DNA of 64,000 nt from a virus. Of the stretch, positions 50,789 through 60,611 are shown piece by piece; the stretch's first letter is position 1, and the number at the start of each line of letters is the position of its first letter. The notes beneath the pieces are model-generated. The model was not told the origin of the DNA. It did no database searches and saw nothing but the letters and a program-made list of their open reading frames with translations. The DNA is taken from the IMG/VR virus record IMGVR_UViG_3300025151_000016; one strand, 5' to 3'. The position numbers were made by a program, and so were the translations under genes.

Positions 50789-51043
50789 TTATATATTATC
50801 CTTTTTCTTTTCAACTTCAGGTATTCTTAAAACTTTATGTGCAAACCATTTAAGAATTCTTTTAACACCATTGACAATCCATTCATTAAAGAAATGTCTA
50901 AGGATTCTAACAATAATAAGAATAGGTGAGTAAAGAACATCAAAGACGACTAGAAGAAGATCAACAATCAAGTCGATCATGCTGTCTACATTCCACAGCT
51001 CTTTTAGTCTCTTTTTAAATTTGGTTCTTGTTTTCTTAAACAT
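50789..51043 (-). CDS. small membrane protein
   Basis: TAATG coupled; hydrophobic core. Confidence 0.55.
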   Translation of the reverse strand: MFKKTRTKFKKRLKELWNVDSMIDLIVDLLLVVFDVLYSPILIIVRILRHFFNEWIVNGVKRILKWFAHKVLRIPEVEKKKDNI

Positions 51044-51621
51044 TAATCGCTATTGAGTGGGTTGTCCAATGCTTCTTGTAATTTTTCGTTTAAATCATTT
51101 TCAAGTTGTCTCGAATCTGCATCAATACGTTCTTCAGTTTCTCTCATAGTATTGCGAACATCTTTTTCAGATTCACGCATAAGTCCTTCTACTTCACGTA
51201 TAGATTGTGTAACATCTTTACGTAACTGATTCATTTCTTCACGCATAGTTTCTAAATGAGTTTCTATTAAGTCTTGAGAATTTTTCACTCTTACCTCTGA
51301 TGCTTCTACTTTATCTTCTGCTCTGTCAGCATGTGCTTCCATTGCAGCTACGTCTTCACGTAAATCGTTTTTTATATCTCTTGCATATTCAATCGCTTCA
51401 TCTACTCTTAACATGCTTTCATCTATTTTTAAAATAACTTTTTCATTTTCCGCAGCGATTGCATCTACATCAATGTTCTGTACAATTTCTTTCATGTCTG
51501 TGTAGTCTTTGTAAAACTCAAAGCCAGCCCAAAGTCCTCCACCTAAAGTAGATAACGCAGTAAGAACGACAAACATCTTACCGCCTCTAAATGTTGTACC
51601 AGCAATTTCAAATTCTGCCAT
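51043..51621 (-). CDS. TM-anchored coiled-coil protein
   Basis: N-terminal TM; long coiled coil; ALDNPL end. Confidence 0.7.
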   Translation of the reverse strand: MAEFEIAGTTFRGGKMFVVLTALSTLGGGLWAGFEFYKDYTDMKEIVQNIDVDAIAAENEKVILKIDESMLRVDEAIEYARDIKNDLREDVAAMEAHADRAEDKVEASEVRVKNSQDLIETHLETMREEMNQLRKDVTQSIREVEGLMRESEKDVRNTMRETEERIDADSRQLENDLNEKLQEALDNPLNSD

Positions 51622-51622
51622 G

Positions 51623-53029
51623 TTAGTTTCCTTCGTACTGTTGTCTTACCATTTCTCTATGAGTAGCATCAGAAGCACCGTTAAAGAATCTTGCTGCAGG
51701 ATTGTCATAGTTCTGTTGTCCTTCATATATTTCTTTTGGTGCATAAAAATCAGCGTCTGCCATCTGCGGTTGTTGGTACTGTGCAAAGTTAGGATTATAT
51801 CCCATTAGCGCAGCTTGAGCATCTTCGCTATCATCACCAGCAACAGCAGCTGCAACTAAATCTTCTTGTGTTTCCAGTGATTCTTGCTTTGCTTCTTCTT
51901 CACTTTCTTCTTGATTTTCTATTTGTTCTGCAATAATATTATCCTCAAGAGAAAGAATATTTGTTAAAGTATTTTCTATTACGTTAGTCGCTGTTGCAAC
52001 TTCAAATGTATCAATCGTTATTTCTATATTTATAGACTGCTCTATAATTGATTCGGCAGATATATTACCTGTTTTATCAGGCATTTTCTTAACATCTTCG
52101 GATGCTACAACCTCTGGTTCTTCTGGTTCTTCTATCGTTTCAAGTTGTTCTTCGAGTGACATTACTTCTCCAGTCGATTGTATGTAAACCCATTCATCTT
52201 CTTGTAGTTGTGGTATTGTTTCATCTGGAGCATTACCTATAAAGTCTTCACAAGTAGGATCTACAACGGGTACTTGTTTACATGGATCTGGATCATATAC
52301 AAATGTGCTATAGATTGCAGCACTGCCAAACTCAGGTCCGTACCATCCTGGCCACTCGGCCGCATCTTTTCCTTCTATCTCAAGAGTAATAGTATCAATC
52401 TTATCACCAGTAATAAAAGGATCGTACCATTGCATTCCATATTTTGTTTCCCATTGATCAATGTGGTAAGAGTAATCCCATTCTTTTTCGTCTAATACAT
52501 TACCGGCTTTATCTTTTACAGTAACTGTAACGATAAGAGGATCTTGTCCTTCCACACCATTTGTGTCTTCCTGATTCGTATCTGCGTTTTTAACTTTCCA
52601 TTGCCAACGATAACCAACAACAGTTATGCCAGCAACTTTAAGAGCTTGACCAATAGCATCTTGTGTTTGAGAAATAACTGATGTTTCGTACCCAAACGTG
52701 TAAGTATCTTTGTTTGTTGCTGAGTTCGCGCATTGACCACCGGAACCAGGACTATTTTCTCCTCCGCTCCATCTTCTAAACCCAAATGTTTCAATACAAC
52801 CAGTAGTTGCTTCATAGTCTAGATCTTCAATGATCTGATCTATATAAACTTTATCTTCTTCAACACCAGAAAGATTAGTAGGCGCGAAGTTAAGCACGCT
52901 TTGATCAATATCATCTTGAGTTAAGTTACCGTCGTAAGAATATTCTTGACTAGATAGCGAGGAGCAAAGCAAGAAGAACGCCGCCGATAGTAAGAGCGGT
53001 TGTCTTATCATTCTTTTCCTTTCTGTCAT
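51623..53029 (-). CDS. secreted acidic protein
   Basis: Signal peptide; W.G.YGP; Cys pair; H.EMV..QY end. Confidence 0.7.
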   Translation of the reverse strand: MTERKRMIRQPLLLSAAFFLLCSSLSSQEYSYDGNLTQDDIDQSVLNFAPTNLSGVEEDKVYIDQIIEDLDYEATTGCIETFGFRRWSGGENSPGSGGQCANSATNKDTYTFGYETSVISQTQDAIGQALKVAGITVVGYRWQWKVKNADTNQEDTNGVEGQDPLIVTVTVKDKAGNVLDEKEWDYSYHIDQWETKYGMQWYDPFITGDKIDTITLEIEGKDAAEWPGWYGPEFGSAAIYSTFVYDPDPCKQVPVVDPTCEDFIGNAPDETIPQLQEDEWVYIQSTGEVMSLEEQLETIEEPEEPEVVASEDVKKMPDKTGNISAESIIEQSINIEITIDTFEVATATNVIENTLTNILSLEDNIIAEQIENQEESEEEAKQESLETQEDLVAAAVAGDDSEDAQAALMGYNPNFAQYQQPQMADADFYAPKEIYEGQQNYDNPAARFFNGASDATHREMVRQQYEGN

Positions 53030-53678
53030 CTACTGGCTTAGCATCAGGATCGTTATCCCATAAAGCTTGAGCAACTGTGCCGATGTTTCCTTTGTATGGA
53101 CAAGGTGTTCCAGCCATTTCCATAGCTTTAAATATAGTTTCTTCTTGACACATAAGTGCTACAGCCGCAACCTTCATACCCATGTTATAAAGTGTCTTGG
53201 CATTTTTTAACCTTTCACAGTTCATGTCACGAATATGTCCACCACCTGACATACCAAGTATCTGAGTTTGAACCGCTGCCGAATATGAGACAGTACATGT
53301 ATCATTTCCACCTGATTGAATAGATGGTGCAATTGCTGAAGGCGGTGCAGTAATTACTTCTTGAGTAATATCACTGGTGTTATTATTATTATTGTTTGCT
53401 GTGCTGTTAACTGTAGTATTGTTTGTATTTGTATTTGTACTAGTGCTCGTATTTGTATTATTTGTAGTAACATTAGAAGTAGAGTTAACAGTGCTTGTAC
53501 TATTAACTGTAGTATTGTTTGTAGTTGTTACATTCGAAGTATTTGTATTGTTAGTGGTGCTGTCAGTTTCCACATAACTGGTAGAATCAAATTTGCCGTC
53601 TGCATCATCGGTCACATCACCAAAAGCTGCAGAGGTTGCAATCATTACGAAGAACGCACCAAGTAGATGCTTCTTCAT
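52950..53678 (-). CDS. secreted protein with Thr/Asn-rich repeats and Cys-rich domain
   Basis: Signal peptide; TNN repeats; PPSAIAP..C; D.NCER.K; GMKVAAV..MC; AGTPCP. Confidence 0.75.
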   Translation of the reverse strand: MKKHLLGAFFVMIATSAAFGDVTDDADGKFDSTSYVETDSTTNNTNTSNVTTTNNTTVNSTSTVNSTSNVTTNNTNTSTSTNTNTNNTTVNSTANNNNNNTSDITQEVITAPPSAIAPSIQSGGNDTCTVSYSAAVQTQILGMSGGGHIRDMNCERLKNAKTLYNMGMKVAAVALMCQEETIFKAMEMAGTPCPYKGNIGTVAQALWDNDPDAKPVDDRKEKNDKTTALTIGGVLLALLLAI

Positions 53679-53779: not shown

Positions 53780-53805
53780 AAAAGGAGGGCTAACCGTGGC
53801 CCTCC
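53780..53805 (-). terminator. intrinsic terminator after the porin-like gene
   Basis: GGAGGGC-loop-GCCCTCC followed by TTTT. Confidence 0.85.
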
Positions 53806-53837: not shown

Positions 53838-54236
53838 TTAGAATGAGAATGAAATACCTACTTCGATATCGCTCATTTCTTCAGCTTCTAGATCGTAACC
53901 TGTTTCAGCATAGACTTTGGAGTCCAGACCCCACATTGTCATGCCATACTCTGCACCGAAGTCTAGAGTTGGTAACTCATCATTGTTTAATGTAAATTCA
54001 TTATCATACAGAATGAAATCCATATCTGCTGAAAAAGCTACACCAGATGAGTGATCATATCCGATACCCGGTGTTAATGTAGCCACCATTGTTTCGTCAT
54101 TGATGTTGTAGCGGTTGTCTAATTCAGCACCTATTGAGATGCCAGTTGCTCCGATTTCAGCTGCTTCTGCTTCAGTCGTTGCCATGCAAGCTGTAAGTAG
54201 TAGTGCTGATGTTGCTGCTGCTGCTGCAAGTTTCAT
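53838..54236 (-). CDS. small outer-membrane beta-barrel/porin-like protein
   Basis: Signal peptide; alternating beta strands; C-terminal G.SFSF (BAM-type terminal Phe). Confidence 0.65.
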   Translation of the reverse strand: MKLAAAAATSALLLTACMATTEAEAAEIGATGISIGAELDNRYNINDETMVATLTPGIGYDHSSGVAFSADMDFILYDNEFTLNNDELPTLDFGAEYGMTMWGLDSKVYAETGYDLEAEEMSDIEVGISFSF

Positions 54237-54258: not shown

Positions 54259-54492
54259 TTATTTACGATTCCAGATTTCATACAGAACCCAAACTGAGAT
54301 CAAACCCATGACGCCTTCAGCGCCGAGTCCAGCTAACATTGCTGTTACATTGTCAACTACACTCATACCTTCGGGCATGAATGGCATAGCACTTAGTCCT
54401 AGTATCTCTAGGATAATCGCTAATGCAGCAACACTAAGTCCTACATCAGCTAAGGCGCCTGCCCATGATTTCACTTTGTTTAAAGTTTCCAT
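54259..54492 (-). CDS. 2-TM membrane protein
   Basis: AAGGAG SD just after the tmRNA coding piece. Confidence 0.7.
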   Translation of the reverse strand: METLNKVKSWAGALADVGLSVAALAIILEILGLSAMPFMPEGMSVVDNVTAMLAGLGAEGVMGLISVWVLYEIWNRK

Positions 54493-54512
54493 AATTGTCT
54501 CCTTACTTTATG

Positions 54513-54647
54513 GTACCACTTTTCTGTTGCTAAGCAAGTGGCCAGCTCCCTGTGATTATGCAGCTAGTGCAAATCCAGAAGGTGCAAAGTTATCGTTTGC
54601 ATTTATGTTTTATAGACTCAAATACCAGTCAATCCTATTTCACCCCC
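54513..54647 (-). ncRNA. ssrA: two-piece tmRNA, coding piece (tag ANDNFAPSGFALAA)
   Basis: 5' GGGGGTGAAATAGGATTGAC; ATAAAT-GCA resume; tag at 54600-54556; terminal CCACTT..AACAGA..AAGTGG stem; 3' end approximate. Confidence 0.92.
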
Positions 54648-54658
54648 ACAAAACCACA

Positions 54659-54850
54659 CTACTTGGAATCTAAAACTTCTTTGCATTTACCTGATGCATA
54701 AGTTTCGAACCAACGAGGAACAAAGGCATGTATGAAGCAAGCATATGCTGCTTTTTCCAACTGCCATGAAATCCACAAAGCTCGTTTGAAATGTTGCCAG
54801 CGTGTCATGCCAGCTTCTTCTACGTGTGATTTACATTTCTTACTAATCAT
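54659..54850 (-). CDS. 63-aa protein inside the tmRNA intervening segment (DUF6356-like)
   Basis: TAAGGA SD; H.....T..QHF..A...........ACFIHAFVP..F...AS. Confidence 0.7.
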   Translation of the reverse strand: MISKKCKSHVEEAGMTRWQHFKRALWISWQLEKAAYACFIHAFVPRWFETYASGKCKEVLDSK

Positions 54851-54870
54851 GTTTTTCCTTAATGTGTTTT

Positions 54871-54925
54871 TGGTGGAGGTGCTGGGTTCTGCCCCCAGGT
54901 CCTGTATATCCTCTAACATCTATGA
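54871..54925 (-). ncRNA. ssrA: two-piece tmRNA, acceptor piece
   Basis: GAC-CTGGG GGCAGAA CCCAG-CACCTCC-A-CCA; pairs with GGGGGTG giving the G3-U70 alanine identity; 5' end approximate. Confidence 0.92.
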
Positions 54926-54929
54926 GGTT

Positions 54930-54958
54930 ATTTAACCATATATCCCAGAGAAAGTAAA
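54930..54958 (-). promoter_or_regulatory. tmRNA promoter (TTTACT-17-TTAAAT)
   Basis: Same spacing as the other promoters, immediately upstream of the acceptor piece. Confidence 0.55.
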
Positions 54959-56653: not shown

Positions 56654-56833
56654 ATGTGGGTATTGCTATGGGTACAGTTAATGGCAACACAAAATGTAAA
56701 TCACTTTCATATTGGTAATTATTCAAAAGAAGTAGACTGCCAGTCGGCTATGAGTGCCGCTGCTGTTTTAGTTACTAGTAAAAATGAAAGCGTTGCTTGC
56801 TTGTACGTAGATATTAATGACATTAGAAATTAG
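56654..56833 (+). CDS. small secreted 2-Cys protein (59 aa)
   Basis: Not in ORF track; MWVLLW...; abuts the upstream stop codon. Confidence 0.55.
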   Translation: MWVLLWVQLMATQNVNHFHIGNYSKEVDCQSAMSAAAVLVTSKNESVACLYVDINDIRN

Positions 56834-58017
56834 ATAAAAGCTTCCAAAGTATTAGGAGCCTTTTCAATATTGTATGATCGAGTCTTGTTATCTTGCAAGA
56901 CATACTCTGCTTCGATCATTTGCAAGTCACCACCTAAAAATCTTTTTACATTTTCTGCCATGTCCATTGCTGTCGTAACAGGCACGTTCTGACATATCAT
57001 ATTTAAGTTCTTTAGTCCTCCTTGTAATATAAAGTCTTTTGGCATCTTCATTATATCCAATGCTTCGCGAGTATTGATATAACGATCTTCATCGGGGTGG
57101 CATAAGGTATGAGGGAAGTGACCAACGAAAGCACCAATACGATCTTTTCCTATCTCAGTCATCTTTCTCATTATATTTCCACCAGCCGATAACTTATCAA
57201 ACATATAGTTACACTTCTCAGAAAGCTTCTGGTGACCCCTTTCTGCCATCCAAACGCCCACATCCTTATAAGATACACCTTTATCTTCAATATAGTGTAA
57301 AGGATTAGTTGTCTTTTCAATTAGTTGAAAGAACTCAGGATGAGTAATTCCACCATGCATTTCTTCTAGTACGTATTGATAGTAAGGATTGTCCGAAGGT
57401 TTCTGTTTGCTATTCACCTGTTCAAACATTGGATCTGGTTCGTTTGTAGCAGATGAACGAATCTGATCTTCGATCTTAGTGTATGGTCGATTGTAATACG
57501 ATAAGATTGGTACAGAGTTTCCTTTCCAAAAGAAATAGAATGATCTATCTCTAACCTGGCTTAATCCGTGGAGGATTGATTTGGTTTTGTAGATGGAGAA
57601 GACGTAACCGTTTCTTCTTCCGATTTCTCTAAGTTTTGCCACAACTGGTTCTCCCATTCGACTAGCGAGCCGTGGAGCATTTTCACCCCAGAACACAGTT
57701 GGTTGGATGGATTCGAGCACATACTCGGCAGACTTGACCATCCAATCATTAGTATTACTATCACCGCTGCTAGTAGGACTAAGTGAAGAAAGCCCCGCAC
57801 AAGGGCAGACAGTATTGACCACATCCACTCTGCTAGGAGCAGTGTCCCCTTTATCAAGCAGTAGATAAGGAATATTATTATTATAATAGTTAAGAAGTTG
57901 GCTATCATTTGCTGTAAAATCCGTGTAAGAGAGGATGTATTCGGGTCGTTTCCCGAATACGTTTTCCATTGCTATTGTTTCACCTCCTATGAGAGGAACA
58001 ATACTTGCATAATTCAT
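56830..58017 (-). CDS. C5-cytosine DNA methyltransferase-like protein (divergent)
   Basis: PC (VCPCAGLS), EN (GENA), Q.R.R; motif I degenerate (PLIGG). Confidence 0.65.
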   Translation of the reverse strand: MNYASIVPLIGGETIAMENVFGKRPEYILSYTDFTANDSQLLNYYNNNIPYLLLDKGDTAPSRVDVVNTVCPCAGLSSLSPTSSGDSNTNDWMVKSAEYVLESIQPTVFWGENAPRLASRMGEPVVAKLREIGRRNGYVFSIYKTKSILHGLSQVRDRSFYFFWKGNSVPILSYYNRPYTKIEDQIRSSATNEPDPMFEQVNSKQKPSDNPYYQYVLEEMHGGITHPEFFQLIEKTTNPLHYIEDKGVSYKDVGVWMAERGHQKLSEKCNYMFDKLSAGGNIMRKMTEIGKDRIGAFVGHFPHTLCHPDEDRYINTREALDIMKMPKDFILQGGLKNLNMICQNVPVTTAMDMAENVKRFLGGDLQMIEAEYVLQDNKTRSYNIEKAPNTLEAFI

Positions 58018-58970
58018 TAATTCACCTTGTAATAATCTTTGTACCAAGTGACAAATTTTTCCACGCCATCAGCAATAGGTGTTGTTGGATTATAACCTAA
58101 TTTCTGGAGTTTAGTCGTATCTGACCATGTGGCTGGAGTATCTGCCGGATGTGCTTCACAAGGATTACGTATTGCTGTGCGACCAAGGTTCTTTTCAATA
58201 TGATCTACAAAATCAAGTAACTCTACTTGTTGTCCATATCCGATATTATATATCTCATGATAACTATCACTATCTGTGACAACTTTATCTATCACTAGGC
58301 TTATGCCATGAACAATATCTTCAACGTAAGTAAAGTCACGTTTCATATCACCAAAGTTATATAAGTCAATTGGTTTACCTTTTATAATATTATCAGTAAA
58401 CTTAAACAGCGCCATGTCAGGTCTTCCATAAGGACCATACACAGTAAAGAATCGTAAGCCAGCGGTACGTTTAATTTTTGAATGACCAAACTGACATTCG
58501 TTTACTTTTTTAGACCAGCCATAAGGGTTGTTTTGATTTTCAGGTTTATCAACTTCATTCCAAGGTAACGGCTGTCCATGCATTACACATGATGATGAAG
58601 CATATACTACAGGAATATTGAGTCCTTCGACTTCCAATGCTTCGACGATACGCTGTGTACCAGTAATGTTTGTGTCAATATAGTGCTGTGGTTCGTCCAT
58701 AGCGTGACGTGGATTTGCATATGCTGCAAGGTGTAAGACTACGTCCACGTCATCAAATAATTTCTTATCAGGATGAATGTCTTGAATATCGAGTTGTAAC
58801 GTATCAACTCCATAGTCTTCTCTTAATATTCTTGCTCTTTCTCTTTTTAGTTCTACATCGTAGTAGTCATTAAAATTATCTACTCCTACTACTTGGTGTC
58901 CTCTTGCTGCATAGTATATTGCAGAGTGGAAGCCTATCATGCCGGCTTGGCCTGTGATAAATATTTTCAT
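58017..58970 (-). CDS. NAD-dependent UDP-glucuronate 4-epimerase-like SDR
   Basis: GQAGMIG; DNFNDYYD..LK..R; HLAA; ASSS; Y...K; LRFFTVYGPYGRPDMA. Confidence 0.88.
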   Translation of the reverse strand: MKIFITGQAGMIGFHSAIYYAARGHQVVGVDNFNDYYDVELKRERARILREDYGVDTLQLDIQDIHPDKKLFDDVDVVLHLAAYANPRHAMDEPQHYIDTNITGTQRIVEALEVEGLNIPVVYASSSCVMHGQPLPWNEVDKPENQNNPYGWSKKVNECQFGHSKIKRTAGLRFFTVYGPYGRPDMALFKFTDNIIKGKPIDLYNFGDMKRDFTYVEDIVHGISLVIDKVVTDSDSYHEIYNIGYGQQVELLDFVDHIEKNLGRTAIRNPCEAHPADTPATWSDTTKLQKLGYNPTTPIADGVEKFVTWYKDYYKVN

Positions 58971-60214
58971 ACGAAAAATTCCTCGAGTCCTTGTGGTTGG
59001 TTGCTAGTAGTGTTCAAAGCGAGATCGATAATTTCTTTCACAACCATTTCTCCATCGGAGTGTTGCTTCCAAAATTCAAACGCCATCTCTCTCCAATCAT
59101 CTCTCATCGCAGGATCATTTTTAAGTTTGACCATTTGGTCGCGGCACTCATTAAAGTTAGTATAGTCAACGCCTAGAGTGCCAGAGTTTTGACATTGACT
59201 AATTGGTTTACCTTGTACAGGATGAATTACATTATCACAAAAGTGTTTGTGAAATAACGGTACTGTACCTGAAGCTATACATTCGGCGTGGCAATTTTCT
59301 ATATTGTTACCATAGTGTTCTGCTTTTAAAAAGTATAAGTCAGAACCAAATGCTGACCGTGACATACGATCCATAGCTTCTGAGTTTATATATTGTGGAT
59401 AAAGGTATGCACCTTTGCCTTCAACTTCTTTGCCATACAAATCAGGTGTAAACTTAACTTCATTAAATTGTTTCTCAGGTCTGAAATGATTTTCTACAAT
59501 TCTACGATCTGTAGGATTGTCTGATTTATTATCACGATATAAGACTAAAGGATATTGTATAGAAGCTTCTAGTCCTTCCAACACAGTGATAAATCCTTGT
59601 TCCATCAAAGCATCTTGATGGAAGTCAATCATAACACTTGGTCCTTTCCACATAGCAGTACGGCCAATCCATCTTACCATGTTGTGTTGTTGTTCTTCAA
59701 TAGGACGCCAGTACTTTGCACGGTGTCCATCATAATCAAAGCCAAGTCCCATCTTTGTAAGTGGAGTTTCAATCTTGTTTTTTCTCATAAACTTACAGAA
59801 ATCATTTTCCATACTATGAGTCATAATAACATCTACATTTTCGCATACTTCTTTTAAGTTAGCATTACGTGCAATGGATGCTGCTTTATGATCTACGTTA
59901 ATAAACGCTTTACGAATATTAATATGTTTAAGAAACGGAATAAAATTATCCTGGCATTCTTGAGGATGACTCTTTGAAGGTACTGAATATATGATACACA
60001 AATCAAAATATTCATTAATCCAATTGGCATTTATCTCCCATTCATTTGCCATTGAGAATTCTTTTTGCTTTATATCTAATCCTTTGGCTCTACCCCATTT
60101 TTTATCAGTAGCAGATAAGATATGAGCACCCGTTACTTTTTGCATTTGTATTGCACACTGTGTAACACCGCAACCTTCAGTGCCGCGACCAAGGACAATT
60201 GCAATTCTAGTCAT
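58967..60214 (-). CDS. a-gt: DNA alpha-glycosyltransferase (T4 a-gt homolog)
   Basis: RGTEGCGVT (T4 RGLEGCGVT); SVP; RWIGRT..WKG; E..H.E....GT.P.F. Confidence 0.85.
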   Translation of the reverse strand: MTRIAIVLGRGTEGCGVTQCAIQMQKVTGAHILSATDKKWGRAKGLDIKQKEFSMANEWEINANWINEYFDLCIIYSVPSKSHPQECQDNFIPFLKHINIRKAFINVDHKAASIARNANLKEVCENVDVIMTHSMENDFCKFMRKNKIETPLTKMGLGFDYDGHRAKYWRPIEEQQHNMVRWIGRTAMWKGPSVMIDFHQDALMEQGFITVLEGLEASIQYPLVLYRDNKSDNPTDRRIVENHFRPEKQFNEVKFTPDLYGKEVEGKGAYLYPQYINSEAMDRMSRSAFGSDLYFLKAEHYGNNIENCHAECIASGTVPLFHKHFCDNVIHPVQGKPISQCQNSGTLGVDYTNFNECRDQMVKLKNDPAMRDDWREMAFEFWKQHSDGEMVVKEIIDLALNTTSNQPQGLEEFFV

Positions 60215-60611
60215 TAATAAATTCCTTACATTCAATTAAAACATTATGTACGTATTTATGATCGTTTAACTTACGATTTCTAGGGGAAGGATGTGGTAAG
60301 ACAAAGTGATCTTCGAAACCAAGACGTTTCAAATAGCTCGATACCATTGAACCCCATACAACTATCTTATCATAGTTTTTAAGACTTGTACATAATAAAG
60401 TGTGATCAAAAGTCTTAAATTTAAAATCCCATTCAGGATCAAATGATAAGTTAGTGAAGGAGACATGTGTGAGGTCCAGTTGATCTAACCAGCTATGAAA
60501 TCTTTTGTACGCAGATCCCTTTGCCTTACTCACTGCTACCTTTGAAGGATTCATTCCAACAAAGATAATTCTAGACCGAAACGAATTCATATTCAATTCC
60601 AGCTTCTTCAA
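60207..60611 (-). CDS. uracil-DNA glycosylase superfamily protein
   Basis: FVGMNPS; TNL; LPHPSPRNR. Confidence 0.7.
   Translation of the reverse strand: MKKLELNMNSFRSRIIFVGMNPSKVAVSKAKGSAYKRFHSWLDQLDLTHVSFTNLSFDPEWDFKFKTFDHTLLCTSLKNYDKIVVWGSMVSSYLKRLGFEDHFVLPHPSPRNRKLNDHKYVHNVLIECKEFIND

Follow-up and report, generated by a model that had tools for sequence, protein, structure and literature searches.

Results

A permuted tmRNA with a gene between its two pieces

The window, that is the whole stretch of 64,000 nucleotides that was analysed, carries PHROG matches to the ssDNA-binding protein, baseplate hub and wedge, tail tube and cap, hub lysozyme, PhoH and RNR of T4-like myophages and, judged by this gene content, is part of the genome of a marine T4-like myophage. 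A blastn search found no close cultured relative of the phage, tblastn matches were limited to two spindle-shaped virus records, and comparison of the tmRNA tag with bacterial tags assigned no host. The first-pass annotation had read a two-piece permuted tmRNA on the minus strand (Table 1), and this identification is upheld by two Rfam models, both above GA: RF04321 (tmRNA_permuted) at 54923-54556 with 77.3 bits against a GA of 47, and RF01849 (alpha_tmRNA) at 54962-54512 with 67.2 bits against a GA of 50. ARAGORN, run on the same locus, missed it. The order of the parts, with the acceptor piece upstream, followed by the intervening sequence (IVS) and then the coding piece, is the permuted order of alpha-type genes. 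The two pieces form a 7-bp acceptor stem with G3.U70, A73 and CCA, of which G3.U70 and A73 are alanine identity elements, and the coding piece continues through a D-loop mimic and the 3' strand of helix 2 (to 54612) into an 11-nt A-rich linker. Given that the T-arm is intact and that no intron family appeared in the Rfam scan, an intron form of tmRNA, with a group I intron in the T-loop, was rejected.

Table 1. Features of the permuted tmRNA locus, in order along the minus strand
Feature	Position	Strand	Basis or remark
Putative promoter	54929..54958	-	TTTACT (-35-like) and TTAAATA, a box that resembles a -10 element or a T4 late promoter
Acceptor piece	54871..54923	-	helix-2 5' strand, T-arm, acceptor 3' strand, A73, CCA; ends CACCTCC-A-CCA at 54871; 5' end approximate
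T-arm	54898-54882	-	inside acceptor piece
Intervening sequence (IVS), 223 nt	54648..54870	-	between CCA and GGGGGTG
Closing stem, 5' strand	54860..54870	-	fold and pairing in relatives
Shine-Dalgarno (SD), TAAGGA	54856..54861	-	TA inside stem, purine core at stem edge
DUF6356 gene, 63 aa	54659..54850	-	Pfam, dN/dS, alignment, AF2
Closing stem, 3' strand	54648..54661	-	opens with TAG stop; ends in RNase P leader G(-2)U(-1)
tmRNA coding piece, ~136 nt	54512..54647	-	Rfam; begins GGGGGTG at 54647 with acceptor 5' strand; 3' end approximate
Tag reading frame, ANDNFAPSGFALAA*	54556..54600	-	resume codon, hydrophobic -AA end
3' pseudoknot of coding piece	54515..54548	-	pairs kept in relatives

A promoter had also been placed ahead of the acceptor piece. 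A TAAATA/TAAGTA box lies at a similar upstream position in all relatives with a DUF6356 IVS, and the upstream region of two related loci (L008/L013) reads TTGACA...TATAAATA, but a sigma70 consensus scan made no call at this site; the assignment is plausible on the strength of the conservation. No terminator was found between the tmRNA 3' end and a hydrophobic ORF of 77 aa preceded by a strong SD (54259-54505, minus strand), which lies directly beyond it and is also present in L018, and the tmRNA may belong to a longer operon closing at a terminator near 53805. An outer-membrane-protein-like ORF of 132 aa (53838-54236) precedes a cluster of large, unannotated and apparently secreted or membrane proteins (51043-53678, minus strand), among them a Thr/Asn-repeat protein of 242 aa, an acidic protein of 468 aa and a coiled-coil protein of 192 aa. 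At 56830-60235 on the minus strand, neighbouring alpha-glucosyltransferase-like, nucleotide-sugar epimerase and cytosine-methyltransferase-like ORFs form a possible DNA modification module.

Conservation of the tmRNA and absence of pseudoknot 1

In the T-stem, acceptor stem and closing stem, pairing across seven sequences is 99.3% and there are five two-sided changes; 0/500 shuffles match their pairing or covariation score, an outcome that is not a p-value given that the seven sequences are related. The 3' pseudoknot keeps 10/10 pairs in seven sequences with two-sided changes at four of these pairs, the helix-2 duplex is retained in nine loci despite sequence change, and alignment of the tag with that of L005 gives four synonymous and no non-synonymous changes. 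Pseudoknot 1, in turn, is absent: there is a 33-nt gap relative to L008/L013, helix 2 stops 11 nt ahead of the resume codon, and the distance from G1 to that codon is 47 nt (54647-54600, minus strand) as opposed to 81-100 nt in 94 bacterial genes. Among the matches listed, the short form without pseudoknot 1 occurs at 66/133 tag-matched loci and at 5/81 loci of a general sample; it is common to a whole phage group, and a separate set has 62-67 nt. Pseudoknot 1 upstream of the tag is a typical trait of tmRNA, missing in plastid forms, and since it is typical and not defining, the present gene is classed as a variant. The short distance to the resume codon, together with the tag-less tmRNA of phage DS6A that inhibits host tmRNA (PMC11915505), would suit a non-tagging relic or decoy, the region serving simply as mRNA for the ORF. 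However, this is very unlikely given the compensatory changes in the acceptor, T and 3' pseudoknot stems, the intact G3.U70, A73 and CCA, the synonymous nature of the tag changes and the sharing of the short form among the listed tag-matched loci. By its sequence conservation the tmRNA looks functional, and its processing into two pieces, alanylation and SmpB-dependent tagging are predicted.

The IVS encodes a DUF6356 protein

The spacer had been described as almost entirely a protein-coding gene with its own SD, and membership of DUF6356 had been expected; both are borne out. The 63-aa product matches the Pfam DUF6356 model with E=2.5e-12 (47.2 bits, gathering cut-off 24.4), the median dN/dS of 11 IVS-resident copies is ~0.09, 45/70 variable columns among the IVS copies fall at the third codon position, and 438 homologues were found. 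An ORF that fills the IVS also appears in 206/5000 shuffles of the window IVS (~4%), a result that is only modestly unlikely; the reality of the ORF is decided by conservation and dN/dS. The shuffles thus leave some room for an ORF that is due to chance or is an annotation artefact, but this explanation is already refuted by the Pfam family, the number of homologues and the dN/dS, and can practically be dismissed; on the comparative evidence the ORF is a genuine gene, on which strong purifying selection acts. Gene callers stretch it to 81-86 aa so that it runs over the acceptor piece. A start at 54919, which would give 86 aa, was discarded, given that its frame relative to CCA differs among relatives and that free-standing homologues begin at the same Met as the 63-aa ORF.

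The protein is modelled as three helices (AF2 pLDDT 86) and the family alignment has four invariant residues, H9, H20, H41 and P45, the three histidines of which suggest that it possibly binds metal. It has no PHROG match, fold searches with the model yielded helical matches of a generic kind (best Z 5.9, all below 8; best viral match E 0.06), and an Atlas search returned DUF6356 alone. Among the matches listed, DUF6356 is free-standing at ~40/52 viral loci and the protein therefore needs no coupling to tmRNA. The IVS copies are monophyletic in 0% of 200 bootstrap trees, with a free-standing copy (L007) nested among them, and they occur in tmRNAs both with and without pseudoknot 1; the tree does not give the direction of movement.

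The closing stem is generic

The IVS ends had been proposed to extend the acceptor helix into a stem that loops out the gene. Folding predicts this extended helix (z -3.35), which contains the TAG stop and the first two bases of the SD, and across seven relatives 98.4% of cells in the closing stem are paired, with one C-G to U-A swap. The stem is thus real and covarying, but it is not specific to the ORF. Its positions 1-9 are 87-96% paired in 268 unfiltered phage IVSs (the matches listed), and a stem of at least 8 bp closes 23/23 phage IVSs that an ORF fills, 46/53 that lack one (25-99 nt) and 43/84 host (bacterial) IVSs, the figure for shuffles being ~4%. Given that the same hairpin is found in ORF-less phage and host IVSs, evolution of the stem for the DUF6356 ORF was rejected. 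Furthermore, IVSs of 8 nt exist on closely related tmRNA backbones, so that the stem is dispensable for short spacers.

The SD core lies just outside the stem in 9/9 single-gene DUF6356 IVSs and its purines are kept in all IVS copies, while extra pairing of the core with Asp-Ser codons is possible in the sub-lineage of the window alone. SD cores inside the 5' stem strand are found in 12/50 ORF-filled as opposed to 1/110 ORF-less IVSs (p=3e-6), and ORF stops nearly always fall within or beyond the closing stem. These placements, as read from sequence, would fit compaction and also selected regulation. Among the matches listed, the leader before G1 carries A at -2 in 246/268 phage IVSs and U at -1 in 247/268; the window has the less common G(-2)U(-1), a form absent from its nearest relatives. 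A(-2)U(-1) is the optimum leader for RNase P, whereas the enzyme is slowed when G(-2)U(-1) pairs with RCCA (PMC9433436), and the prevalence of the former in relatives may be taken as an indirect pointer to processing of the precursor.

The IVS holds many unrelated genes in related phages

For a wider view, 102 distinct viral permuted tmRNAs were chosen by the coding-piece pattern alone; the viral samples being selected by pattern and their sequences related, counts apply to the matches listed. ORF-filled IVSs are present in 19-23 of the 102, 19 of them with an SD-like core, and 23/34 long IVSs are filled as opposed to 3.6 +/- 1.7 (maximum 9) in shuffles. With further scans included, the genes fall into at least 12 families that are unrelated to one another; dN/dS is 0.09-0.43 in the nine tested, and the nearest tmRNA backbones carry IVSs of 8 nt, of 25-80 nt, with DUF6356 or with another gene. 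In L018/L019 (1481-1922) an IVS of 442 nt holds two overlapping tandem genes, one for DUF6356 and one for a hydrophobic family that elsewhere is the sole gene of an IVS (L107 and L115, for example). The longest viral IVS observed (L110, 499 nt) has a 120-aa ORF, probably with a second SD-led ORF ahead of it.

Stop positions cluster at fixed sites: the stem's outer edge, where that of the window lies, the interior of the stem, a TGA directly before G1, and 13 nt into the coding piece. The last class comprises 12/50 ORFs, which run across the RNase P site (L057, L061, L092, L101, L102, L139, L194 and others, with MGAK-like ends), and their messages should be non-stop after cleavage.

IVSs in 103 bacterial genomes have a median of 32 nt and a maximum of 95 nt; none of these 103 IVSs holds a filling ORF and none exceeds 95 nt. 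An SD-led, IVS-filling ORF was likewise not found in eight cultured phages with IVSs of 49-410 nt. Sinorhizobium phage Phosso (L617, PV764938.1) has an unannotated permuted tmRNA whose highly structured 410-nt IVS contains neither a tRNA nor a filling ORF and may contain a structured RNA. Unannotated permuted tmRNA-like genes are also present in RcRudolph, vB_RpoS-V10, Cp1R7A-A1, CcrPW and HTVC008M (L616, L618, L619, L620 and L622), and the RcRudolph record places a hypothetical CDS on top of the gene. Alpha-type permuted tmRNAs under Marinimicrobia, Hydrogenophaga and Bordetella labels (L290, L360, L371) probably come from misbinned contigs.

Discussion

The IVS loop is probably a tolerated cargo slot of a working two-piece tmRNA, with the cargo translated from the nascent or unprocessed precursor. 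A single transcript from a phage promoter would span the acceptor piece, IVS and coding piece; a generic stem, inherited from the host-type IVS hairpin, would pair the IVS ends, and the tRNA-like domain would fold regardless of what the loop contains. RNase P would cleave at G1 and 3' processing would expose CCA, as is established in hosts, where three RNA forms are known from Orientia (PMC7335160). Given that stem and processing would excise the loop, an insertion there would spare the mature tmRNA and gain the tmRNA promoter. The DUF6356 cassette may have entered the slot and then been trimmed until its SD and stop came to abut or overlap the stem. Ribosomes would load before the 3' stem strand is made, with nascent or unprocessed precursor as the main template, and stem closure and processing would then terminate the message or shorten its life. 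The first-pass annotation had proposed that translation competes with this pairing, and folding agrees to the extent that opening the ribosome-binding footprint of the window is predicted to cost 12.7 kcal/mol in the precursor, compared with 3.4 kcal/mol in the nascent RNA and 4.2 kcal/mol in the excised IVS, and the nascent RNA is the cheaper to open in 9/9 DUF6356 copies (3-6 as opposed to 8-16 kcal/mol). The link between translation and maturation would be a by-product, perhaps later tuned, with no dedicated switch.

These opening costs would also suit a selected switch, in which ribosome traffic opposes stem closure, so that the output of the protein and the maturation of the tmRNA would be under mutual control; its sign might go either way, ribosomes delaying folding or, by unzipping the leader/RCCA pairing, speeding RNase P. 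The SD within the stem in ~5/12 families, the class of ORFs that traverse the RNase P site and the slow leader of the window point in the same direction. Nevertheless, a switch of this kind is rather unlikely: the identical stem type closes ORF-less IVSs, the cargo is interchangeable, DUF6356 is mostly free-standing, and neither the G(-2) variant nor the SD-core pairing is conserved among relatives. Competition with the joining of the two halves is further weakened by the acceptor stem and helix 2, which also hold them together. It is doubtful, too, that tmRNA maturation acts as a regulatory clock in which the stem gates cargo translation, ribosomes set the rate of RNase P, and the message of the crossing class is non-stop and tagged by its own tmRNA. 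If true, this would be a self-contained feedback loop from ribosome-rescue capacity to phage protein output, run here by a tmRNA without pseudoknot 1.

The first-pass annotation had also suggested release of the IVS as a stand-alone message. In the DUF6356 family the SD, start and stop all lie within the IVS, and in the window the cost of opening the free IVS is low (4.2 kcal/mol), as would be expected if it were excised whole and served as an abundant, end-paired main message of 223 nt with high cargo output. Such release, whether by RNase P together with RNase E or through cleavage of the RNase III type within the ~22-bp extended helix, is quite unlikely. Such a message is impossible for the stop-less class, opening the free IVS costs 7-11 kcal/mol in most relatives, and exonucleolytic 3' trimming would destroy the IVS. 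In addition, the analogous 23S rRNA IVS of Coxiella, which encodes S23p and is excised by RNase III, undergoes rapid degradation in vivo and is apparently not translated there, and its ORF is decaying (PMC4990558).

That S23p-coding IVS is the nearest analogy to the tolerated slot: in both, a terminal stem loops an ORF out of the precursor of a stable RNA, and its removal involves no ligation. The analogy is of the works-like kind only, and identity with an ORF-bearing rRNA IVS of the S23p type was rejected, given that the latter is rRNA with one family, whereas the present case is tmRNA with DUF6356 and, among relatives, many interchangeable families under strong selection. Small ORFs between the tRNA genes of T4-like phages are co-transcribed and are freed or destroyed by tRNA processing. 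Unlike these, which lie between genes, the cargo here sits inside one gene whose halves pair around it. Rickettsial palindromic elements are reported to occur inside the IVS of permuted tmRNA (Mao 2009). A tRNA-Ala and a repeat element are further IVS passengers named in the 2025 database paper (PMC11915505), whose passages on IVS contents make no mention of protein genes. Such passengers share with the present locus an IVS that tolerates inserted DNA, but they are non-coding or selfish, whereas the passenger here is an SD-led protein gene under purifying selection.

The tmRNA itself resembles the alphaproteobacterial two-piece form (RF01849, RF04321; Caulobacter, Orientia) in gene order, tRNA-like domain, alpha-type T-loop, ANDN...LAA tag, 3' pseudoknot and IVS closing hairpin, and differs in its 223-nt coding IVS, as opposed to a short one that no ORF fills, and in the absence of pseudoknot 1. 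Two-piece tmRNAs are already known in the aquatic myophage Melnitz and in pelagimyophages (PMC9004378); these are likewise alpha-type permuted ssrA genes of marine T4-like phages, but no IVS cargo is described for them in that study. As the first-pass annotation had supposed, a description of a protein-coding tmRNA IVS was not found in the searchable literature, whose coverage of the key tmRNA papers and database is incomplete, and earlier cataloguing is possible.

The excised spacer is usually viewed as disposable, but aquatic phages often have a protein-coding slot in its place, and one transcript therefore seems to act as an mRNA as well as the precursor of a stable RNA. A coding IVS also hides tmRNA genes from annotation, as the ARAGORN miss and the overlong ORF of the gene callers illustrate. 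The cargo also draws attention to small phage proteins on which selection acts, the locus is a compact test case for competition between translation and RNase P on one RNA, and the form without pseudoknot 1 is a natural test of the need for this pseudoknot in tagging. Given that the IVS contains a selected gene and that relatives reuse the slot, it is suggested that the precursor of a stable RNA probably doubles, in these phages, as a short-lived messenger.
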